Source: an uncultured Acidobacteriota bacterium
Lineage (GTDB): Bacteria; Acidobacteriota; Thermoanaerobaculia; UBA5066; Gp7-AA6
Length of the DNA stretch: 64,000 nucleotides
Reading direction: 5' to 3'
Assembly: GCA_963797495.1 (NCBI GenBank)
Contig: CAWCPN010000002.1
Span: 3,240,520-3,304,519, forward strand
In this document: one piece after another, positions 10,762 to 44,624 of the stretch
Layout: every line of letters begins with the position of its first letter
Position numbering within the stretch: the first letter of the stretch is position 1
Translations under genes and position numbers: made by a program
Notes under the pieces: model-generated
Seen by the model: the letters and a program-made list of their open reading frames with translations, nothing else
The model's database searches: none
What the model was told of the DNA's origin: nothing

Positions 10762-12282
10762 TCAAGGTGTCGCGTCTCTCGACGACCCCGGGGGCCCGGG
10801 AAGGGCCGACGACGGTCGCGATGCGCGGATCGCCGTCTGGACCAGGAAGGCCAGGCCCCCGAGCAGGCACAGCCCGGCGAAGATGCGAACCGGCCGGTCC
10901 TCCGGTCGAATCACTCGACCGCGCAGAATCAGAGGTTGAGGGACGGCGAAAGGTCGCACGTCCACGGGCTTCCAGTTTGGCACCTGGCCCGGGCTGCGGA
11001 AGTTCCAGTTGTGGCCCGCTGCGACGAACGCGGGCCCCCGGTCGTGGCCCGTTTCGCGGCGAATCCACGCTTCGGCTAGGCGCGCGTTGAACTCGACGTG
11101 ATTCCAGAGTGGATCACCCTGGTACGTTTCGAGGAAGACGTCCGTCGTGCCCATCGCCACCCCGCCCATCGCACCGTAGTAGAAGAGGACGCCGAGGATC
11201 GAAACCGCGAGCCCGGCGGCTGCCGAAAGCACCAGAGCGGGGCGTCCTGCGCGGCGGCCCGGCGCGTAGCTCGCGGCGAGGCTCAGCACGAGGGGAGCGA
11301 TGGCCGCGTGGAGATATCGCGGCCCCCACGTATCCTCGGCCCACAGATCGAGAAGGGAGAAGCCGCCAGCCAGTCCGGCCACGGAAAGGACGGCGAAAAC
11401 CGCGACTGGCCGGTTCCGCCGCCAGGCCGCGGGAAGGCGCACCAGCGCAACCACCGCGACCGGGGCGAAGACGAGCAGCCCCTTGTTCGGCGAACCGATG
11501 AATCCCACCAGATGCAGCAGGGGAGCCACGACGCTCCGGGCGCGGAAGCCGCGCAGGTACGCGCCGGTCCCGCCGAATCGCTCCCAGGATGCGATTCGCC
11601 AGGATGCGTTGAGCAGGTACGCGGCTGCCACCACTGCCAGGATCGCGAGCGCCCGTGCCGCGTGCGCCCGGACAGGGAGCGCCGCGCGGCCCCATCGCGC
11701 GGCGAAGCTCCAGATCAGATATCCGACGGCCGGCGCGAGCATCACGCCGTTCGACTTGGAGGCGACGGCGAAGACGCAGCAGATCGTGAAGAGCGCCACC
11801 GCCGGCCAGCGCGGTCGGCGGGAGTCGCCGAGCGCCAGGAAACCTGCGGCCAGAAGGGCCAGAGCTTGTGTGGTCTCGAGTCCGATGTACGCATAGGGCC
11901 AGAGCATCGTGGCGAACCCCGCCGTCAGCGAGAGCGCCAGGGCGAACCCTGCGCCATGCCCCAGGCGCGAGCACCAGACGAACAGCAGCGTCACGATACC
12001 GGCCGTCGCCGCGACGGGCTGGATGGACAAGGCACGGTCGCCCCAGGCGGGGCCGCCGGCGGCATCGCCGAGGAGCACGAACGGACACTCGAGCAGGACC
12101 GCCGCGGGTCCGTTGCGCCCCCAGTCGACTTCGCGCAGCGAGTGGCCGCTCCCGGCGGCCGCGCGGCAGGCGGCAACGTCGAAATGGACATAGCCCATCC
12201 CGACGGTTGAAAACGGGGACATCGAGAGATAGAGAAGAAATACGGCAAAGAACAACGCCAGAACCGGAGGGCGGCTAGACAT
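10762..12282 (-). CDS. polytopic membrane protein, possible GT-C-fold (PMT/ArnT-like) glycosyltransferase
   Basis: The ATG overlaps the upstream stop (ATGA) and GAAGGA lies just upstream. About 11 TM helices are followed by a periplasmic-type C-terminal domain (..LETYQGDPLWNHVEFN..). The family assignment is tentative. Confidence 0.6.
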   Translation of the reverse strand: MSSRPPVLALFFAVFLLYLSMSPFSTVGMGYVHFDVAACRAAAGSGHSLREVDWGRNGPAAVLLECPFVLLGDAAGGPAWGDRALSIQPVAATAGIVTLLFVWCSRLGHGAGFALALSLTAGFATMLWPYAYIGLETTQALALLAAGFLALGDSRRPRWPAVALFTICCVFAVASKSNGVMLAPAVGYLIWSFAARWGRAALPVRAHAARALAILAVVAAAYLLNASWRIASWERFGGTGAYLRGFRARSVVAPLLHLVGFIGSPNKGLLVFAPVAVVALVRLPAAWRRNRPVAVFAVLSVAGLAGGFSLLDLWAEDTWGPRYLHAAIAPLVLSLAASYAPGRRAGRPALVLSAAAGLAVSILGVLFYYGAMGGVAMGTTDVFLETYQGDPLWNHVEFNARLAEAWIRRETGHDRGPAFVAAGHNWNFRSPGQVPNWKPVDVRPFAVPQPLILRGRVIRPEDRPVRIFAGLCLLGGLAFLVQTAIRASRPSSALPGPPGSSRDATP

Positions 12283-13202
12283 CAGTCCTTCGGCCGCCGC
12301 CCGACGAGCAGCTGAAAATCGCTTGTCAGCAGTCCCGAGTCGACGAGGGCGTCCTCGGTCTCCCACACGGCTCGCAGGATCGCCTCGGCCTCCGGATCCC
12401 CCGGCGTGAAGTTGTGGGCGATGCCGTTGTAGAGCAGGTGCTGAATCGTCCCCCCGAGGAGCTTCCGGTGCGGGACCTCGAAGTACCGTTCGAAGAGCGG
12501 CCCGATCTCCGCCGACCGGATCGACTCGAAAGGGGACGCCGCCACGACCTCCTCGACGGTCGGCCGGCCCTCGTAGGGCTTCACCTCGCCCCGCCGAAGC
12601 GTCCGGAAGCGCGGCGGAATCAGGGCCATGAGGGCCTTCGTCAGCTCGATCTGCTGGTCGGTCCACTGGAACTGGGTCGGACCGACGAACTCTTCGAGGA
12701 TGAAGAGGCCGTGCGGCGTCATGGCGTCGAGGACCTGGGTCATGACGTGCTCGAGCTCGAGGAAGTGGTGGAAGCTGTGAGACGAGACGACCAGGTCGTA
12801 CCGGTTCGGTTCGAGACGGAGCCGGTTGCAGTCCTCGACGCGAAAGTGTCCGGGCGCGCCGGCCTTTTCCCGCGCCGCCTCCGCCTCCCGCACCCGGTCC
12901 GGGCTCGCGTCCATCCCCTCGACCTCGCGGGTCGAACCGATCCGGTGGAGCTGCAGGCTCAACGAACCCGAGCCGCAGCCCAGTTCCAGGCTGCGCTCCG
13001 CGGGCCCGCCGAGCTCCCGGGCGAGCCACCGCCGCCAGGGCAGGCCGTCGATCCGGCTCCGGGACTCGTAGTGGGTCTGTATCGACGGGTGGTCGATCCA
13101 GGCATGCATCTCGTGGGTGGCTTCGACAGCCAGATGATCGCCCCACTTGCGGCCCTCCGCCTGGAGACGCTCCTGATAATCGGAAGAGCTCGGATGCGTC
13201 AC
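12282..13202 (-). CDS. class I SAM-dependent methyltransferase
   Basis: GTG start overlapping the upstream TGA (GTGA), with GAGG upstream. Motif I is LELGCGSGSLSL. The remainder is a Methyltransf_11/12-like fold. Confidence 0.7.
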   Translation of the reverse strand: MTHPSSSDYQERLQAEGRKWGDHLAVEATHEMHAWIDHPSIQTHYESRSRIDGLPWRRWLARELGGPAERSLELGCGSGSLSLQLHRIGSTREVEGMDASPDRVREAEAAREKAGAPGHFRVEDCNRLRLEPNRYDLVVSSHSFHHFLELEHVMTQVLDAMTPHGLFILEEFVGPTQFQWTDQQIELTKALMALIPPRFRTLRRGEVKPYEGRPTVEEVVAASPFESIRSAEIGPLFERYFEVPHRKLLGGTIQHLLYNGIAHNFTPGDPEAEAILRAVWETEDALVDSGLLTSDFQLLVGRRPKD

Positions 13203-32205: not shown

Positions 32206-32328
32206 TCCCGCCCGGCGCGGCGGCGCGCCTCGAAAAGTGACCCGCGGTCGCAAACATCGGTGTACGACAAGTGTTGCGATTGTCTTCAGGGTATGTGTAT
32301 GGTCGCGCTGTTAGGGGGCCTTCCGGTC

Positions 32329-33417
32329 ATGTTGACAGTTGAGGTTCGTCGGCGCCCGGGCACGAGTGCCGAGATGCATCGCGTCACCGGCGGAAGCGCG
32401 ACAGTTGGCGCCTCGTCGGGCAACGAAATCGTCGTCCGCGCGCGCGGAGTCTACGGCCGCCACATGCGGCTGTTCGAACGCGACGGCAACTACCACCTCG
32501 ACCTCTTCAAGGGCATCGAGACCGTCCAGGTCAACGGCCGCGACTTCTTCGGAGGTCCGATCACCGTGGGCGACCGAATCTCGATCGGCGAGGCGACGCT
32601 CACCGTGGTGGAGGCTTCGTCGGCCATGCGGCCGACTCCGTTGGGGGAGATCCCCGCGGGCGATCTCGCGGCGCCGCCGGAAGTGCCGGCCGCCGCCGTC
32701 CTGCCGGTGACGGAAGTCGAGTATCGGGCGCTGCGGCTGGCGGCGTTTCGCCTGTGCCGCGAGGCGCACTCCTCGGAGGACCTCGCCACCGAGCTGACGG
32801 ATTTCCTGGACCGCGAGCTTCCCCCCTCGGAATGGGCGGTCGGCGAGTTTTCCGCGGTCGCGGGATTCCGGCCGCTCGCTTCGACGTTCCGGGAAAACCC
32901 GGCTCTTCCGCCCCGCATGGCGCAGGACCTGCGGTCGGGCGAGCGCCTGGCGCGCGCCGAGACCGTCACGGGCGCGCTGACGCTCCTCATCGAACCGATG
33001 CGCGAGGGGGTCGGCTGCGTCGGGATCCTCGTGCGCGAAACGCCGCGTTTGGCGGCCCGGGCCGTTCTCTTCCTCGAGGAGCTCGTGCAGATGGCCGGCA
33101 TCGCATTCTCCGGGATCGGCGCGCACGAGCCGGGACACGCCGCCGTCCGGCAGACGATGGAGGTTCCGGCCCCGGCCGCGCCGGCCGCCGAGCCGAGCCT
33201 GGCCGAGACGGTGCTTCGCCAGACGGACGACCTCAAGAAGATCGTCGAGACCGTGGAACGCGAGGTCATCGACCGCGCCATGCGTCGCGTGGAAGGCAAC
33301 CAGAGCCGGGGAGCCCAGGTCCTCAACATCTCGCGCGGTTCCCTGATCGCCAAGCTCAAGGAGTTCGGGATCGCGGACTATCGATACCTCCGGCGCGAGC
33401 GGGGTCGCCGGGGCTAG
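32329..33417 (+). CDS. FHA-domain transcriptional regulator with C-terminal Fis-type HTH
   Basis: The N-terminal FHA-like segment is ..GNEIVVRARGVYGRHMRLFERDGNYHLDLF.... The C-terminus ..RGAQVLNISRGSLIAKLKEFGI.. is an HTH_8. An AT-richer promoter-like island lies at 32250-32328. Confidence 0.65.
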   Translation: MLTVEVRRRPGTSAEMHRVTGGSATVGASSGNEIVVRARGVYGRHMRLFERDGNYHLDLFKGIETVQVNGRDFFGGPITVGDRISIGEATLTVVEASSAMRPTPLGEIPAGDLAAPPEVPAAAVLPVTEVEYRALRLAAFRLCREAHSSEDLATELTDFLDRELPPSEWAVGEFSAVAGFRPLASTFRENPALPPRMAQDLRSGERLARAETVTGALTLLIEPMREGVGCVGILVRETPRLAARAVLFLEELVQMAGIAFSGIGAHEPGHAAVRQTMEVPAPAAPAAEPSLAETVLRQTDDLKKIVETVEREVIDRAMRRVEGNQSRGAQVLNISRGSLIAKLKEFGIADYRYLRRERGRRG

Positions 33418-33445
33418 GAACGCTTCGCCTGCGAGGGGGCCCGAT

Positions 33446-33913
33446 TCATCGGGCCGCCGCGTCGAGCTCCTCCTGGAACGCCAGGATCGAACTGCAGAGC
33501 GCCCGCAGGCCCGAAGGGAGCGTCAGGAGGAGCTCGCCCGAGGCGTTGACGACCACCTGTTCGGTTTCGCCCGAGACGAGCAGGTCGCCCGTCTCGCTGC
33601 GGACCTCGTAGTCCATCACGAGGCGCGCGACGCTCGGCGCGCGCAGGCGTGCGGTCACCCGGATCGTCTGGTCGGGGCGCGCGGGTGCCCGGTACCGGAG
33701 CTCCATCCGCGTGACCGGCACGCGGTAGCCCATCTCGAGCGCGCGGGCGGCCGAGAAGCCGAAGCGGCCCGTCAGGGCTTCGCGGACATGCTCGAAATAC
33801 AGGACGTAGTGTCCATGCCACACGACCCCGTACGGGTCGCACTCGGCGAACCGTACGGGGATCTCGAGCGTCAGGCCGCAGAGAGGAGGAGCGGAGCGCG
33901 CCGGAGGGGTCAT
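33446..33913 (-). CDS. hotdog-fold acyl-CoA/acyl-ACP thioesterase (4HBT/YbgC-like)
   Basis: ..ECDPYGVVWHGHYVLYFE.. is the 4HBT catalytic region. The ATG overlaps the stop of the upstream KS-like gene (ATGA). Confidence 0.7.
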   Translation of the reverse strand: MTPPARSAPPLCGLTLEIPVRFAECDPYGVVWHGHYVLYFEHVREALTGRFGFSAARALEMGYRVPVTRMELRYRAPARPDQTIRVTARLRAPSVARLVMDYEVRSETGDLLVSGETEQVVVNASGELLLTLPSGLRALCSSILAFQEELDAAAR

Positions 33914-35010
33914 CCCGGCGATTCCATCACGGCGGCGAGAAAATTTCCGCCGGCGCCGAAAGAGTTGACGAGGGCGCGCCGCGCGTCGCCTGCCGCCACC
34001 GCCCGGCAAGCCGCCACGAGCTGGGCGCCTCCGGCCGCCGCCATCTCGCCGATCGCGTCCTTGACCGAGACCTCGCGGGGCCGCCGGCTGCCGAAGACGG
34101 TCCGCATCGCCTCCTGCCTCGGCCCGGTCCATCTCGGCGACCCCGTCGCGCGAGGAGAGCCAGAGATCGACGCTCCCGGCGTCGGCCCCGGCATCCTCGA
34201 GGGCCCCCCGGATCGCCCGCTCCATGGCGCCCGGGTGCGGCGCGAACCGGTAGGGTTCCGACGCCACGCCGGCCGTGCCGATGCCCGAAATGCGGGCCAG
34301 GGGAGTCGCTCCACGTCCGCGCGCGGCCGACTCTTCCTCGAGGAGCAGGACGAAGGCGCCCTCGCCCTGCACGATGCCGTTGGCGCGCTTCTCGCCCCGC
34401 AGCGCGCCGACGCGGTCGAAGCCCATCGCATAGAAGGCGTTCCATTCGTCGACCGCCCCGGCCAGCATCGCACGCGCCCGACCCGAGGCGAGGGCGAGCG
34501 TCGAGAACAGGACGGCGTTCAGGGCCGAAGGGTCCTTCTGGGTGATCGTGACGTTGGGCCCGAAGATCTTGAGCTCGATCGAGACCTGGGAGGCCGGGGC
34601 GTTGGCGACGGTGTTGGGGAAGTGGAACGGAGGCGCCGCCTCCGGCGACTCGAGGATCAGGACCTTGAGGAACTCGGTCAGCGCGCCCGCGCCCGCCGAG
34701 CCGGTTCCCATGGCGATGCCGATCGATTCGGGGTCGTCGGCGATGGCGTAGCCGGACTCGGCGATCGCCTGGGCGGAGGCGATCAGGGCGAACTGGCTGC
34801 CGCGGTCGAGGCGCCGCGCCTTCATCGCCGGGATCTCGGGCTGCGGCGAAAAACCTTCGTAGCGCGCGGCATGCGTGGCCTGCATGCCGCCGCGGGCCTC
34901 GGGGTCGAGCGGACGGATCGCGCGGTCTCCGGCCGTGAGACGCCGGTAGAACTCGGCCGGGCTGCGGCCGAGCGGGGAGACCGCGCCGGTCCCCGTGACG
35001 AGGCCGCGCG
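33910..35010 (-). CDS. ketosynthase-like protein with the active-site Cys replaced by Gln (KS-beta / chain-length-factor-like); frameshifted (one or more) and start unclear
   Basis: The N-terminal part reads ..GLVTGTGAVSPLGRSPAEFYRRL..ARRLDRGSQFALIAS..GPNVTITQKDPSALNAV.., with Q where FabF has Cys. The true C-terminus ..ALVNSFGAGGNFLAAVMESPG lies in a different frame, implying a shift near 34130-34160. No ATG, GTG or TTG precedes GLVTG in frame. Confidence 0.5.
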
Positions 35011-35012
35011 GA

Positions 35013-36235
35013 TCAGCCGGCGCCGGTATAGCGCGAGAGAACGACGACCGAGCTGTTGCCGCCGAACGCGAACGAGTTCGACAGGGCGACCTCGACCTCG
35101 ACGTCGCGCGCCGCGTTGGGAACGTAGTCGAGGTCGCAGGCCGGGTCGGGGTTCTCGTAGTGGATCGTGGGCGGGACCATGCCGTCGCGGACGGTCAGCG
35201 CCGTCGCCACCGCCTCGATCGCCCCGGAGGCGCAGAGGCAGTGGCCGATCATGGACTTGATCGAGGAGACCGGGATCGCGCGTGCCCGGTCGCCGAGGGC
35301 GGCCTTCAGCGCGGAGGTCTCGGCCGAGTCGTTCTGCGGCGTCGCGGTGCCGTGCGCGTTGACGTAGTCGACGTCCTCGGGGTTGAGGCCGGCGCTCCGG
35401 AGCGCCGCCCGGATCGTGCGGCCGCCGGCGGCGCCGGAGGGATCCGGCGCGGTCATGTGGTACGCGTCGGAGGTGACGCCATAGCCGCGAAACTCGGCGA
35501 CGACCGGCGCGCCGCGGCGGCGCGCGCGCCCCTCCTCCTCGAAGACGAGGATCCCGGCCGCCTCGCCGATCGAGAGGCCCTTGCGCTCGCGGTCGAAGGG
35601 CCGGCAGGGATCGGGATCCACCGAGCGCAGCGAGTTGAAGCCGCCGTAGGTCAGCCGAGCCAGCACGTCCGAGCCGCCCGTGACCACGACGTCCGCCAGG
35701 CCCGCGGCGATCGCGTCGAAGGCGTAGCCCATGGCGTTGGCCGAGGAGGAGCAGGCCGTCGTGATCGTCGACTTGATGCCCTCGAGGCCGAAGCGCTGCG
35801 CGACGCGGTCGGTGATCGAGTCGGGCAGGTGATTGAGGACCTTCGAGGGGCGGGCCTTCCGGCCGCGCAGGTAGAGCTCGAAGAAGGCCTCGCGAGTCGA
35901 TCAGGCCCGAGGTGCCGCCGCCGAGGATCACGCCGATGCGGGACGGGATCCTCGCGCGCGAGGTCGAGGCCCGCGGCCGCGATGGCCTCCCGCGCCGCGG
36001 CGACCCCCATGCGGTCGGCGCGGGACATGCGCCGCCGCTCGGCCGCCGTCAGGAAGCCGTCCGGGATCTCTTCGACCTGGGCCGCCGTCTGCGTGCGGTA
36101 GGAGGCGGGGTCGAAGAGCGAGAACGGGCGGATGCCGCAGGCGCCCGAGAGCAGGTTCGTCCAGAAATCCGCGAGCGTTCCGCCGATCGACGTGACCGCC
36201 CCCAAGCCGGTGATGACGACACGCCGCTGGCCCAC
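35013..36235 (-). CDS. beta-ketoacyl synthase (FabF/KAS II-like, active-site Cys present), with two +1 frameshifts near 35880-35930
   Basis: The N-terminus is [19 protein letters not shown]. The active site is [16 protein letters not shown], and His/His lie in [11 protein letters not shown] and IGHCLCASG. The reading switches frame twice within about 60 nt (..EDP / [17 protein letters not shown] / REAFFELYL..). Confidence 0.65.
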
Positions 36236-36316
36236 GCGGCGATTGTGGCACAGGGCCGGGCGTCGCGGCGGCGCGCCGTCCAGGACGTTCTTGACTCCTC
36301 TGCCATAATCCCGCCC

Positions 36317-36758
36317 GTGGCGGATGCACGCGTCGACTGGCACACCTACTTCATGAACATCGCCCGGCAGGTCTCGACCCGGTCGACCTGCCCGCGCAAG
36401 CACGTCGGCGCCGTCATCGTGCGCGACAAGACGATCCTCTCGACCGGGTACAACGGCTCGATCCGCGGGCCTGCCGCACTGTTCGGACGTCGGCTGCACG
36501 ATGGAGGACGGCCACTGCGTCGCTACGGTCCACGCGGAGGCCAACGCGATCATCCAGGCCGCCAAGAACGGAGTGTCGATCGAGGGCGCCGAGATCTACA
36601 CGACGGCCAGCCCCTGCTGGCCCTGCTTCAAGCTGATCGCCAACTCCGGTCTCGGCCGCGTGTACTACGGCGAGTTCTACCGGGACGAGCGCTCGCTCCT
36701 CGTGGCCAGGAGTGCGGGCATCGAGCTCGTGGACCTCTCCGCTTCCGCACGGGCCTGA
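36317..36758 (+). CDS. dCMP deaminase (cytidine/deoxycytidylate deaminase family), with one frameshift near 36470
   Basis: ..[37 protein letters not shown] lies in one frame and ..[17 protein letters not shown] in the next. The zinc motifs HAE and PCxxC are both present. Confidence 0.7.
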
Positions 36759-37463
36759 CGCGACCGATCAGGAGGGCGCCGGCGCCCCTCCGAGCGCGAG
36801 GATCCGAAGGCAATCCTCCAGGTGGCCCTTCGAGGCGGCCGAGAGCTGGAAGAAGCGGCACCCGAGTGCCCCGGTCGGGCTCCTTCCCGAGCCGGACGAC
36901 GAGAGCCTCGGCGACGAGCGGTGCGCACGCCGTGCTCGACCGGAACGTCGAAAGAGACTTCGAGCCGCGCTCCGATCGGCTGCCGCGCGTCGGTGCGTAC
37001 GAAGAAGCCGCCGCGCGAAAGGTCCCGGATCGTGCCGGCGTGCTGGAGGCCGTCCCGCCAGAACGTGATCGACCACCCGACCGCGGCACGCGCCTCCTCG
37101 CGCGGCAGGACCTGCAGGAACCGGCGCAGGGCCGCGAAGAAGGCCTCCGGGTCGAGCGGCAGCGGCAATGTGGCGTCCGCCCCGGCACGCGTGGACGCCG
37201 CCTCGGACCCCGTCGGTCCGACCACCACGATGGGCGTCCGGGCGAAGGCGGGGTCCGCCTTGAGAACCCGCGTGAGATCGACGCCCGTCATCCCCTTCAT
37301 GCCGGCACTGACGACGATCAGGGCCGGGCGTTCCGCGGCGCACGAGGTCGAGCGCCTCCGTGCCGCCGGCGGCCTCGAGCGTCTCGCAGCCGGTGCGCTT
37401 CAGGACTTCCTCCGCGGCTCCGCGAAAGAGCCCCGTGTCGTCGACGAGGAGGATCGGAGACAT
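36677..37463 (-). CDS. response regulator receiver domain fused to a PilZ-like domain; one frameshift inside REC
   Basis: [43 protein letters not shown] is the REC N-terminus. After the shift, ..[27 protein letters not shown] is the REC C-terminus. The PilZ-like part is ..[30 protein letters not shown]... Confidence 0.5.
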
Positions 37464-37470
37464 CGGTGCC

Positions 37471-38193
37471 TCAGAATCCCCGCGGCCGCAGCACGACCTC
37501 GCCGTGCAGCACGTGGGCGAGGCGACGTCAGGACGGACATGAGCGCGTCCACGACGTCCTCGGTCGTCAGCATCTGCGGCCGGTCGAGCGTCGGCCGATA
37601 GCGGTTCGAAGAACTCGGTGTCGACCGAGCCCGGGCAGATCGCGGTGACCCGGATGTTGGCCGGCTTCAGCTCCGCGGCGAGCGCGCGGCTGAAGCCGAC
37701 GAGCCCCGCCTTGGCGGCGCAGTAGACCGTGCCCTCGGCGAAACCCTCGAGGCCCGCGATCGAGGACATGATGACGATGTCCGAGGGTGCGGATCGCAGC
37801 AGTGCATGGAGGCAGGCCTGCGACAGGTAGATGGCGGCGGCCAGATTCGTCTCGAGCATCGACGCGACCTCGGAGCGCTTGGCTTCCAGCAGCGGCGCCC
37901 GGTAGCCGAGCCCGGCGTTGTTGATCAGGATGTCCAGGCGCCGGAAGCGCGAGAGCAGCACGTCGACGCGCGTCGTAGAGGGCCGGGACGCTGCGCAGGT
38001 CGAGCACGTGGTAGGCGGCCTCTCCGCCGGCATCGGTGATCTCGCGGGCCACCTCGCGCAGCTTTTCCTCGCGGCGCGCGACCAGGAACACCTTCACGCC
38101 CGCGGCGGCCAGGGCGAGCGCGAAGGCCCGGCCCAGGCCCGAGGAGGCTCCCGTGATCAGCGCCACCTTGCCGTGCAGGGTCTGGCCCGTCAT
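37471..38193 (-). pseudogene. short-chain dehydrogenase/reductase (SDR) with at least four frameshifts
   Basis: GKVALITGASSGLGRAFA, RLDILINNAGL, YCAAKAGLVGFSRALAAEL and C-terminal ..[14 protein letters not shown] are all recognisable but distributed over three frames. Confidence 0.55.
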
Positions 38194-38283
38194 GGCGCCA
38201 AGTTATCAGGCTATTGGCGGCCCCGGCCGGCGTCCAGCGCCCGCCGGGCGCCGGCTGTCCGCGCCTGTATCATCCGCTCCCGC

Positions 38284-39310
38284 ATGGACACGATCTCCCA
38301 CGGCTTCGCGGGCTCGATCCTGGCCCGCTCGGCCGCGGAGCGCCCCGCGGCGCGGGCGGCCCTCGTTCTCGGCGCCGTCGCGGCGATGGTTCCGGACCTC
38401 GACTTCCTCTTCTTCTCCAACCGCCTCGACTACCTGCGCGACCACCGGAGCTGGACCCATTCCTTCCTGGTCCTGCCGTTTCTCGCGCTGGGGCTGGCCC
38501 TCGTCGCGAAGGCCTTCGCGCGCCGGGCGCGCTCTGCGCGATGCTGTGGCTCTTCGCCGCGATCGGGATCGCGTCCCACATCCTCTTCGACTGGGCGACG
38601 TCCTTCGGGACGATGTTCTGGACGCCCGTGACGCGGCATCGCTACGCCCTCGACTGGCTTTTCATCCTCGACCCGCTCTTCACCGGGATCGCGCTCGGCA
38701 ACGCTCGATCCTCACGCTCGTGCTTCCGGGACCGCGCGCGTCGAATCGCGATCGTCGGCTCGGGCGTGCTCGCGGCCTACGTCGCAGCCTGCGCCGTCCT
38801 CCATGCCCGCGCCCTCGAGATCTGGAAGCGGCTCGACGCGGCCCGCCGCCGGGCGCGCGGGTCGCGGTGCTGCCGCAGTTTCTGTCGCCCTTCCGCTGGC
38901 TCGGGCTCTCGGAGAGCGGCGGACGAGATCCGCGTCGCCTTCTTCGACATCGGACCCTTCGCGAAGGGCGTCGCGGACCCGCAGCCGCCGAAGCGGTGGG
39001 GGGAGGTGCTGCGGAGCCTCTCGGACTTCTACCCGCCGCCCGCGCGCGCGAAGGTCGCGACGCTACGAGAAGCCGGCGGGCCGCGCCGGCGCTCGAGGCG
39101 GCGCGCACGCCTCGACGGACTGGCAGATCTACCTGGCGTTCGCGCGGTTTCCGCTCGAGACCGTCTACCCGGAGCCGGACGGAGGAGCGACGGTGATCGT
39201 CCAGGACCTGCGCTTCCTGCCGTTCTTCACGGGCCCGTGGGAGCCCGACCAGAAGCAGGGGATCCGGCGGCAGCCCTTCGTCTACCGCGTCCGCTTGGAC
39301 CGCGTCGCTA
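38284..39310 (+). pseudogene. YdjM-like membrane-bound metal-dependent hydrolase (DUF457) with several frameshifts
   Basis: MDTISHGFAGSILARS..PDLDFL..DHRSWTHSFL..ASHILFDWATSFGTMFWTP.. spans at least three frames. The 3' end is uncertain. Confidence 0.45.
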
Positions 39311-39416
39311 CGCGCCGTCGAGCGGGGCTTCGTTCGCAGCGGGCGCTGAGGGCGTCGGCGCCGCGGCGGGGCGGCGTCGCCGGCGACGTAGGAGTACTCG
39401 GGCTCGGGCGTCCGCG

Positions 39417-42349
39417 TCAGGGCCTCCGAGATCGCGGCGTAGTAGCCGACCTTGATGAGCAGGCGCACGAAGACGAAGACCTGCTGCGTCGAGGATCAGC
39501 GGCACCAGGGCGAAGCGCGCCTCGCCGCCCGGCCGAGGGATCGAGGACGAGCCACAGCAGGTAGAGGGCCGCCGTGACGAGCGGTGTAGATCCCGAGCAC
39601 GCCGAGCAGGCGCAGCGGCCGGCCCGAGCGCGCCCGCGATTCCGAAGACGAATCGCGAGACACGGGCGGAAGGTCCGGCCGCGCCACCCAGACCGTCCGC
39701 ACGGCGTCGGCGAGGAGCTTGATCGCGGCGAAGGCGAGCGCGAGCGCGAGCAGCCGCAGCCCCGTGACCGCGAGCGCCGCCTGCTCGGTGTGGAGCTCCT
39801 TGACGCGCGCGCCAGCGCCTCGCCCGAGCCGACGTAGATCCACTCGTAGGCCGCGAACGCCGCGCCGAAGCGCCGCGAACGTGAACAGCAGGAAGGCCGG
39901 CATGCGACGCATGCCCTCGCGGCCGAACGTGACGAGCGAGCTCGAGGGCTCCCGCAGCACGCCGAGCATGCCTCCGAGACCGAATGCGTGGAGCACCGTC
40001 GCGAGCAGGGCGAGGGAGAAGGCGGTGGCCCCCACGCCGCGCATCCCCGGCAGCTCCGACCACCGGATGCCCTCGGCGGAGAGCAGGCCCGTCGCGATCT
40101 CGGGGAAGTTGCCGAGCACGTCCGGGTGGACGCGGCGCACCGTCTCCCACCAGCCGTAGTCGGGGTTGGCGACCATCTTGTCGGCGGCCGGCGAGCGGTC
40201 GAGCAGCGCAGTGCAGCGTGTTGGAGATCGGGAGGATGAGCGCGGCCGACAGGAGAAGCTGGATCAGCCAGAGGGCGACGGCGAGGTAGGGCTTGGAGAG
40301 CGAGAGCCGCAGCCCGCGCAGGAAGCAGGCAGAAGGCCCGCGGGCCGCGGCGCCTCACCAGACCACCGTCATGAAGTCGATCATGTTCTGGACCCAGAAG
40401 ACCGCGCGCGCCGTCCAGCGCGTCGCGGCCGCGCGGAGTCGTCCTGCGTGCGCCGGCCGTTGTTCGTGCGGTCGGCGTCGAGCAGGATCTTCTCCTCCGG
40501 GTCCACGACGGCTTCGAGAGCCGCGGTCCGGACGTCACGCGGAACCGCTTCCATCGCGCCTCGCCGTCCCAGTGCGAGCGGTACTCGCGGCCGCCCTCGA
40601 AGCGCAGCAGCGACGTCGACCGGCATGGCGACGTCTCCGCTGCGGACGACCGTGACCCGGCTGTCATATCCGCGCGGCTTTCGCGAGCTCCGGCGGCGGG
40701 CCCGTCGGAGAGGCGGCCGTCCTTCTCGAAGAGGCCCGCGCGGCGGCGCCGCGGGCTCGCTCTCGGCCTCGGCCACCGCGTAGTCGACGATGCCCGAGGA
40801 AAAGAACGTCCGGTCGAAGAACCACGTCCAGTCCTGGCCGGTCGAGTCGTTGACGGCGGCGATGAAGTCCTGCGTCGTCGGGTGGCGGAAGCGCCAGCGG
40901 TCGGCATAGAGGCGCAGGCGCCCGGTCCATCGCGGGCGTGCCGAGCAGCCGCTCGAGGGTCGCCATCGTGAGCGCCGTCTTCGTGGTAGACGTGGGCGCC
41001 GTAGGACTTGCGCTCGCGGAACTTCCAGCTCTCCGACGCGAGCACGTCCCAGTCGGCGACCTCGAAGTAGCGCCGGTTCGAGTCGAGCGGGTAGTGGATC
41101 TCGATCCCGAGCGGGAAGTGGAGGCCGAAGACGTTCAGCTCCACGTGGTTCGGCCCGAAGACCGACTTCAGGACGCGGTCGGTCATGTAGGTGTTGAATC
41201 CCTCGTCGAGCCACGCCTCCTCGAACTCGTTCGAGGCGAGCAGGCCGTAGAGGAACTGGTGGCCGGTCTCGTGCACGGTGACGCCCTCGGGGCGGTGGAC
41301 GTTCTTCGGCGCGCTCCAGGAGGTGCCCGCGGTGATGAGCGTCGGGTACTCCATCCCGCCCGCGCCCCGGGCGCCCCAGGGCGGGATCGACGATCGTCAG
41401 GGTGCTCGTACGGATAGGCCGCCGAGGACCCGGCCGTAGCCCGAGAGCGCGGCCTTCGCCGCCCGGAAGTGCCTCTCCGCCTGGGCCGCATGCTCGGGCT
41501 GAAGGAGCAGGATGAGGCGAACGTCGCCCAGCCCCGCCTCCCGGAACGCGTCTTCGAGCACCAGGTACGCAGGATCGGCCGTCCAGGCGAAGTCGTGGAC
41601 GCCCTTCTGGCGGAATCGGTAGAGGACCCGGCCGGCCGAAGTCTCGCGCTCTTCGACGCTGGCGGCCGGTGGCGCCGACCCGGCCCTTGAAGCGGGCGGG
41701 CACGTCGATCGAGACGTCGTAGTTCCCGAAGTCGGCGAAGAACTCGCTCGACGCGTGGAACTGGTGGCAGTTCCAGCCGCCGTCCTGGAAAACCCCGATC
41801 TTCGGAAACCACTGCACGACGAAGAAGAAATCGCCCTTGTAGCCGGTGCGCACGGACACGCGCGGCAGCCGCGAGACGAAGTCCATGGCGATCGAGATCG
41901 TCTCGCCCGGCGCCACGGGGCGGCCCGGGATCGACCTCGGCGACCGTGCGGTCGTCGGGATTGCCGTCGTCGGGGGCGATGTACTTGAGCGAGGCCAGCA
42001 GGTCTTCGCCGTCGGCGCCGGTCATGCGGAGGATCTCGATCGAGCCCCAGGAGTCCGGCGGCAGCCGGCCGTCGCGGCTCTCGCCGCGGGACTCCCGGTA
42101 AAAGGTCGAGAGCGTGTTGCGGAAGGCGTTCAGATAGAGGTGAAAGCGCAGACGTCGCGGCCGGACGCGAGGTGGTGTTCTTCCAGGTCAGGACCTGCGT
42201 GCCCTCGACCGTCTTTTTTTCCGGTGTCGAGCTTGCAGGAGATCTGGTACGAGGCGACCGGCGGCGGCGGGAAGGGACGAGCGGCGAGGGCCGACGGTCG
42301 CGGCCGCGCCGAGCGCGGCCGCCAGGACCCCGGCTTTTGCCGAAGACAT
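39417..42349 (-). pseudogene. M1-family (gluzincin) metallopeptidase, heavily frameshifted
   Basis: The signal peptide is [18 protein letters not shown]-domain fragments include ..[16 protein letters not shown].. and ..[35 protein letters not shown]... The zinc site is HETGHQFLYGLLASNEFEEAWLDEGFNTY (HEXXH-X18-E). Fragments lie in all three minus frames. Confidence 0.5.
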
Positions 42350-42369
42350 TGCGCGGACTGTAGCATGAG

Positions 42370-44624
<2,255 letters not shown>

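Follow-up and report, generated by a model that had tools for sequence, protein, structure and literature searches.

A FabF-like ketosynthase, a predicted inactive partner and a hotdog thioesterase encoded in a conserved operon of Thermoanaerobaculia

We describe a three-gene operon at 33446-36235 on the minus strand of a 64-kb stretch of DNA (hereafter the window; G+C ~70%), whose nearest relatives belong to uncultured Acidobacteriota, class Thermoanaerobaculia. Three-frame translation of positions 33400-36400 gives three consecutive and co-directional genes, for a ketosynthase (KS1), a second ketosynthase-like protein (KS2) and a hotdog thioesterase (Table 1); this trio had been put forward in an original prediction from the same DNA, and both the translation and the Pfam domains bear it out. 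The reading that we lean towards is that the operon encodes a FabF-derived ketosynthase/pseudo-ketosynthase (KS/KS') pair and a product-releasing thioesterase, which together would make up a specialized elongation module resembling type II fatty acid synthase (FAS). A joint function is indicated by the operon coupling, by conservation in 80 related loci, by the purifying selection acting on KS2, and by the existence of fused KS-KS' homologs. To collect related loci, one genome per species was scanned, which returned 190 loci with KS2 motifs; the best 80 were analyzed (~21 kb each, i.e., ±10 kb, and ~1.6 Mb altogether), and these are all from metagenome-assembled genomes (MAGs) of Acidobacteriota/Thermoanaerobaculia, with at least 70% identity.

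KS1 starts with a GTG at 36235, ends with a TGA at 35015-35013, and matches PF00109 (144 bits) and PF02801 (138 bits). The first ketosynthase was expected to retain the Cys-His-His triad, and we could locate the corresponding codons: Cys is encoded by TGC at 35753-35751, and the two His at 35354-35352 and 35243-35241. With a Lys at 35258-35256, KS1 has the residues of a housekeeping FabF, namely the triad plus Lys335. Its best PDB match is the Listeria FabF (359 bits), followed at a distance by actinorhodin KS-alpha (263 bits) and Iga11 (247 bits). KS types were assigned by comparing PDB and NCBIfam scores, and on these scores KS1 is classed as FabF-like, not KS-alpha-like. It passes the cut-off of NCBIfam PRK07314, the 'beta-ketoacyl-ACP synthase II' subfamily (426 bits, cut-off 387), and falls under that of the fabF equivalog TIGR03150 (424 bits, and 405 for its intact ortholog; cut-off 493.75). 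Six KS partners of dead KS' proteins, among them the intact ortholog of KS1, all score under the same equivalog cut-off (335-470 bits).

KS2 is divergent, shares 29% identity with KS1, and has both ketosynthase domains (PF00109, 85 bits; PF02801, 47 bits). Its entire catalytic triad is replaced: an Asp occupies the position of the Cys (GAC, 34534-34532), a Ser that of His303 (34153-34151), and a Glu that of His340 (34047-34045), with Lys335 kept (34062-34060). These replacements make condensation by KS2 impossible, and the second gene is therefore an inactive KS, as originally predicted, although not because of a Gln at the catalytic Cys position. Two independent alignments place Asp there, and the Gln two residues earlier. 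In phmmer, GPNVTITQKDPSA of KS2 aligns with GPSISIATAQTSG of E. coli FabF C163Q (PDB 2gfv), so that within TITQKD the Asp faces Cys163 of FabF and the Gln faces Thr161; BLASTP of intact KS1 against KS2 orthologs gives the same register, the KS1 Cys pairing with the Asp of NVTITQKDPS. In the AlphaFold2 model of P0003, a 90%-identical KS2 ortholog (pLDDT 91.6), a strand covers residues 155-158 and the next helix begins at 164, so that Asp162, two residues ahead of the helix, and not Gln160, would lie at the nucleophile elbow. The 'QKD' motif recurs in 78 of the 80 related loci, the motif search having come back empty for L039 and L047. More distant relatives carry other residues at the Cys position, Glu being the commonest among those inspected, along with Ser, Asn, Gly and Ala, and in a few cases Gln (P0126, 'QKQ'; P0144, 'NKQ').

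KS2 is also closer to FabF than to chain-length factors (CLFs). Its phmmer scores are 107 bits against E. coli FabF, 80 against Iga11 and 68 against the actinorhodin CLF (1tqy_B), and a Foldseek search with the KS2 model returns FabFs for all of the top 11 matches (TM ~0.92), 6kxd_A ranking 12th. Judged from these comparisons, KS2 is a predicted FabF-derived pseudo-enzyme that stands outside the aromatic KS-beta family. The argument that a Gln in KS2 is the hallmark of a KS-beta of type II polyketide synthases (PKS) fails on both the Asp and the scores. As a separate observation, KS2 of the Thermoanaerobaculia is devoid of a C-terminal segment of ~27 residues (window ~33960-34040) present in KS1 and FabF, a segment retained in relatives of 401-425 aa such as P0132, those of 407 aa included.

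The third gene encodes a 4HBT thioesterase, in line with the prediction: it matches 4HBT_2 at 59.3 bits, above the gathering score of 25.5, and 4HBT at 44 bits. It starts, again as foreseen, in an ATGA overlap (33913-33910) formed by the TGA of KS2 (33912-33910) and the ATG of the thioesterase (33913); between KS1 stop and KS2 start, the genes of the relatives likewise abut or overlap. The protein resembles YbgC/4HBT hotdog thioesterases (6fdg, 1z54, 1s5u) in its fold family and in the Asp of D-x-x-G-V-V-x-H. This putative catalytic Asp is encoded at 33838-33836, in the motif ECDPYGVVWHGHY, and PDB alignments to 6fdg and 1z54 set it opposite the Asp of 'ETD'. Unlike in YbgC thioesterases, the gene is coupled to a KS pair instead of tol-pal, and the protein is under the cut-offs of both the YbgC/FadM subfamily and the tol-pal equivalog.

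The order KS1-KS2-thioesterase is found in 79 of the 80 loci, the exception being a contig that ends inside KS2. Over these loci, KS1 is 79-95% identical to that of the window, KS2 69-90% and the thioesterase 61-92%. The ratio of nonsynonymous to synonymous substitution rates (dN/dS), calculated among six intact relatives, is 0.088 for KS1, 0.123 for KS2 and 0.127 for the thioesterase, and two neighboring genes of the same relatives give 0.117 and 0.141; the KS2 value indicates that a dead KS is under purifying selection. Two features of the functional class of KS/CLF-like heterodimers, whatever their origin, are found here: an active KS adjacent to and co-transcribed with a triad-less homolog, and an inactive partner that is under selection. 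In two loci, L037 (3071-4438) and L057, we observed an insertion of ~2 kb between KS2 and the thioesterase, which in L037 encodes a 455-aa polytopic membrane protein matching no Pfam or NCBIfam family.

The trio also occurs at greater distances, with KS2 identities of 50% (L003), 41% (L087, Acidobacteriota UBA4820) and 36% (L088) and thioesterases 38-51% identical to that of the window. In L087 it lies directly downstream of genes for a malonyl/acyl transferase (MAT), a ketoreductase (KR), an acyl carrier protein (ACP) and a hotdog dehydratase (DH), and it belongs to a self-contained type II system. L088 (1597-5017; KS1 55% and KS2 36% identity) has a KS-KS'-thioesterase set beside the same divergent dCMP deaminase as the window, and the persistence of this neighbor at such a KS2 identity implies that the adjacency is much older than the class; the dead KS of L088 carries a Ser at the Cys position ('SHRS'). 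In L090 and L091 the KS-KS' pair is flanked upstream by a gene for a B12-binding radical SAM enzyme and downstream by one for an LpxL-type acyltransferase, which in L090 stands in for the thioesterase; the whole looks like an unusual lipid-modification cluster. The pair of L090 (6326-12186) and L091 has 'QKE' at the Cys position and retains the second His, and two more B12-radical SAM genes are near. In Holophaga, one contig carries a KS-KS' pair with genes for an ACP and an ApeI-like dehydratase ahead of it.

When representatives at 50% identity were searched exhaustively, the best matches included many proteins of ~800 aa with two KS regions. In one such fusion, P0127, the N-terminal half keeps Cys-His-His and shares 45% identity with KS1, and the C-terminal half, devoid of the catalytic Cys, shares 32% with KS2; the P0127 cluster encodes a 4HBT thioesterase, a phosphopantetheinyl transferase, MAT, KR, ACP and an ApeI/ApeP-like dehydratase. 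The fusions, together with the contexts in L087, L090/L091 and Holophaga, imply that the KS-KS' pair recurs as a cassette in lipid clusters resembling type II FAS. In some of these clusters off-loading is assigned to a thioesterase and in others to an acyltransferase, and the Thermoanaerobaculia version is the cassette reduced to KS, KS' and thioesterase.

In the elongation module as we picture it, KS1, with its intact triad, would perform decarboxylative condensations. KS2 would pair with KS1, taking the place of the other subunit in a KS1 dimer; the fused homologs, as Rosetta-stone evidence, point indirectly to such a physical heterodimer. Within it, KS2 may shape the acyl pocket, the chain-length limit or ACP docking, as in chain-length factors. 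The growing chain would be carried by an ACP encoded elsewhere and acting in trans, reductive steps, if any, would likewise be supplied from elsewhere, and the translationally coupled YbgC-type thioesterase would hydrolyze the finished acyl thioester to a free acid.

An experimental precedent for such a pair comes from the ladderane cluster of anammox bacteria, where amxFabF2/amxFabFmut was shown to be a functional KS/CLF-like heterodimer, able to decarboxylate malonyl-ACP and altered in its preference for chains (bioRxiv 10.64898/2026.05.19.726425). Both pairs consist of two adjacent FabF homologs, one with Cys-His-His and the other with all three residues replaced, and both are FabF-derived and lie outside the aromatic PKS clade. 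They differ in the replacements, the anammox dead copy having Val or Thr for Cys and Asn, Glu or Cys for His, whereas KS2 has Asp for Cys. They differ too in arrangement: the anammox dead copy lies upstream, and its cluster also encodes radical SAM enzymes and a dedicated ACP, whereas KS2 lies downstream and is accompanied by a coupled thioesterase and no ACP. The two KS chains of PDB 9s5h, which we guess to be the anammox complex, match KS1 at 348 bits and KS2 at 102 and 87 bits. A literature search on 9S5H, exosortase H and Thermoanaerobaculia ketosynthases found nothing specific.

Actinorhodin KS-alpha/KS-beta (1tqy) offers the same combination of an active KS and an adjacent, full-length, inactive KS-like partner. 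Chain-length factors carry Gln at the Cys position, in contrast to the Asp of KS2, which is closer to FabF than to CLF, and the present operon has no ACP or cyclases. The ishigamide pair Iga11/Iga12 (6kxd), from a highly reducing type II PKS, is likewise a KS/CLF pair, and its chains are reduced, fatty-acid-like or polyene. Iga comes with an ACP, a KR and a DH of its own, and the Iga scores of KS1 (247 bits) and KS2 (80 bits) are both below those for FabF. A further likeness is with the aryl-polyene (APE) proteins ApeO/ApeC and ApeK, which combine a KS, a CLF-like partner and a hotdog thioesterase in a Gram-negative, FAS-like lipid pathway; the related loci L005 and L092 encode ApeI/ApeP-like dehydratases and an ACP of 86-87 aa. 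ApeC is a half-size, single-domain CLF (PMC8358021). We rejected membership in the APE KS/CLF family, given that KS2 has both KS domains and ApeC one, and that no APE genes are present in the window.

Several observations weigh against a dedicated elongation module. No ACP, MAT, KR, DH or enoyl reductase (ER) was found in the window or in the 80 related loci. The operon itself has no ACP, KR or DH gene, a point on which the original prediction was right, and tblastn with E. coli AcpP together with a scan for the DSL motif detected no ACP-like open reading frame (ORF) in the 64-kb window. When the MAT, KR, ACP, DH and GAF proteins of L087 were used as queries against the window and the 80 loci, they gave a generic match of ~35% to a short-chain dehydrogenase/reductase (SDR) and nothing else. 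The nearby SDR, ~35% identical to the L087 KR, has a gene of opposite orientation between itself and the operon, and so generic a match (35%) is no evidence for a linked KR. A search with the L087 ACP placed none of its top 120 matches on a trio-bearing contig, which says little for a family of >5,700 members. On the side of the thioesterase, the score against the YbgC/FadM subfamily TIGR00051 (55.4 bits) is below the cut-off of 68.7, and YbgC-type thioesterases act mostly on acyl-CoA. Finally, KS1 could be a housekeeping enzyme. The minimal type II elongation module originally proposed stands in part: the active KS, the inactive partner, the thioesterase and the lack of a carrier in the operon hold, and the assignment to the PKS family does not.

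The housekeeping role of KS1 deserves the most attention among the alternatives, unlikely as we consider it. KS1 and KS2 would then be the primary elongating KS of the cell, a heterodimeric FabF through which Thermoanaerobaculia make their ordinary fatty acids, with the thioesterase as an editing or regulatory hydrolase. KS1 is indeed the most conserved gene of its neighborhood (79-95% identity, dN/dS 0.088) and scores above the PRK07314 cut-off, and the operon sits amid housekeeping genes in deep synteny; no second KS was seen in the window or the 80 loci, which means little with ~21 kb visible per genome. Yet KS1 and the comparable KS partners are below the fabF equivalog cut-off, and KS1 does not adjoin acpP, fabD or fabG. 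The L087 ACP, moreover, belongs to the 'phosphopantetheine-binding protein' type (86-87 aa) and goes with a hotdog DH and no ER, so that it looks secondary. These sub-threshold fabF scores and the secondary-type ACP of L087 favor an accessory rather than a primary system.

A second alternative, which we hold to be slightly less probable again, starts from the genes 3' of the thioesterase. In 68 of the 80 loci, these encode, on the same strand, an exosortase H (122 bits against TIGR04177, cut-off 86; named identically by NCBI and JGI) and a conserved membrane protein of ~200 aa matching no family; in L014, where these two genes occupy 11574-12711, the one for exosortase H shares 4 nt with the thioesterase gene. 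Exosortase systems that come with genes for acyl handling are known. The module could feed a dedicated acyl or lipid moiety to exosortase H (IPTLxxWG-CTERM) sorting, the lineage of the window having secondarily lost or moved the sortase genes. Against this, the window and ~12 relatives (L007 and L013, both very close to it, and ~10 others) keep the trio without exosortase H and the membrane protein, as do the distant trios L003, L087 and L088. The evidence for this alternative comes, moreover, from one class with strongly conserved synteny, in which the adjacency may be historical, and the top 120 exosortase H homologs are all from Thermoanaerobaculia. The adjacency may reflect a functional link or mere class-wide synteny. 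That the module is specifically the lipid-supply arm of exosortase H, its acyl group serving as anchor or modification of IPTLxxWG-CTERM proteins, seems to us improbable; if true, the five-gene operon of 68 out of 80 species would be the first genetic handle on the exosortase attachment target.

Much less credible is the idea that the genes are decaying pseudogenes, or unrelated neighbors with no joint function. The frameshifts originally noted in both KS genes are real in the window sequence and visible in DNA alignments to relatives. Single-base insertions near 35948 and near 35892 shift the frame of KS1 twice, and one near 34115 puts the C-terminal 67 residues of KS2 in another frame. The ATG of KS2 is also lost through a 1-nt deletion at 35012/35011, the relatives reading TGATGCC where the window reads TGATCC (35009-35015), and this fourth lesion, which the original prediction did not mention, is best explained as a deletion error. 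Three frameshifts and a lost start codon in two KS genes would suit decay, but the defects are not confined to them: 59 non-triplet indels private to the window relative to five relatives, 52 of them single-base insertions, fall in 34.1-44.4 kb, against only 14 in 25.5-33.9 kb. Every gene in the former interval is fragmented, including those for the dCMP deaminase, a response regulator-PilZ protein, the nearby SDR, a YdjM-like protein, an M1 peptidase-like protein and a DNA ligase. All relatives have intact proteins, of 400-403 aa (KS1), 367-375 aa (KS2) and 153-163 aa (thioesterase), with dN/dS of 0.09-0.13, and the genes stay in the same order at identities as low as 36%. Because the indels cluster across 34.1-44.4 kb and the relatives are intact, we conclude from these alignments that the KS1 and KS2 frameshifts are assembly errors, and on the local indel run and dN/dS we rejected pseudogenization. 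The doubt that the frameshifts had cast on functionality is accordingly unfounded. 'MFD...bin' long-contig MAGs make up many of the related records; these are presumably long-read assemblies, which would fit insertion-rich errors. ORF-based readings of 34100-44400 are unreliable, and frameshifts there are noise from sequencing or assembly and no sign of gene decay.

Least credible of all is a minimal aromatic type II PKS, consisting of KS-alpha and a KS-beta with Cys replaced by Gln: active and inactive KSs are adjacent, a Gln lies near the active-site loop, and P0126 and P0144 have Gln at the Cys position itself, yet that position holds Asp in the window and in the 78 loci where the motif was found, both KS2 (68 bits for CLF vs. 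107 for FabF) and KS1 (263 for actinorhodin KS vs. 359 for FabF) prefer FabF, and the neighborhood has no ACP, cyclase, aromatase or ketoreductase.

On each side of the operon, we recorded one neighboring gene. The divergent dCMP deaminase, predicted beside the operon, is confirmed upstream on the plus strand (Table 1). Downstream, 28 bp separate the thioesterase stop (33446) from a convergent regulator (33417); this regulator (32260-33417, plus strand) is FHA-like at its N-terminus and has a Fis-type HTH_8 at its C-terminus, and it neighbors the operon in 72 of the 80 loci. The gene calls for this regulator in relatives (362 aa) show no recognizable AAA+ sigma-54 domain.

Table 1. Features of the operon and its surroundings in the window (positions in window coordinates).
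Feature	Position	Strand	Basis
KS1, FabF-like beta-ketoacyl-ACP synthase, ~407 aa after frame repair	35013..36235	-	Translation, Pfam, NCBIfam, PDB match
KS2, predicted catalytically dead FabF-derived KS-like protein, ~368 aa after repair	33910..35011	-	Translation, alignments, fold search
Hotdog thioesterase, 4HBT/YbgC type, 155 aa	33446..33913	-	Pfam, PDB alignments
Two single-base insertions in KS1	35892..35948	-	DNA alignment to L001/L002; same against 4-5 relatives
Single-base insertion in KS2	34115	-	DNA alignment to relatives
Divergent dCMP deaminase, upstream, frameshifted near 36466	36332..36758	+	Context gene

In pathways to polyketides and unusual lipids, pairs of active and inactive KSs control both priming and chain length. 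Few such pairs have been studied: those of aromatic PKS, ishigamide and aryl polyenes, to which the anammox ladderane system was added very recently. The trio described here is an uncharacterized, class-wide variant of this KS/CLF-like principle, and shows no sign of being a new kind of system. What distinguishes it is its derivation from FabF, the acidic residue at the nucleophile position (Asp in the window, Glu in most distant relatives inspected), and its organization as an orphan operon of three genes that includes a releasing thioesterase, spread class-wide in uncultured soil Acidobacteriota. Its characterization would show how a dead FabF copy reprograms a live one, and might reveal an unknown acidobacterial lipid.

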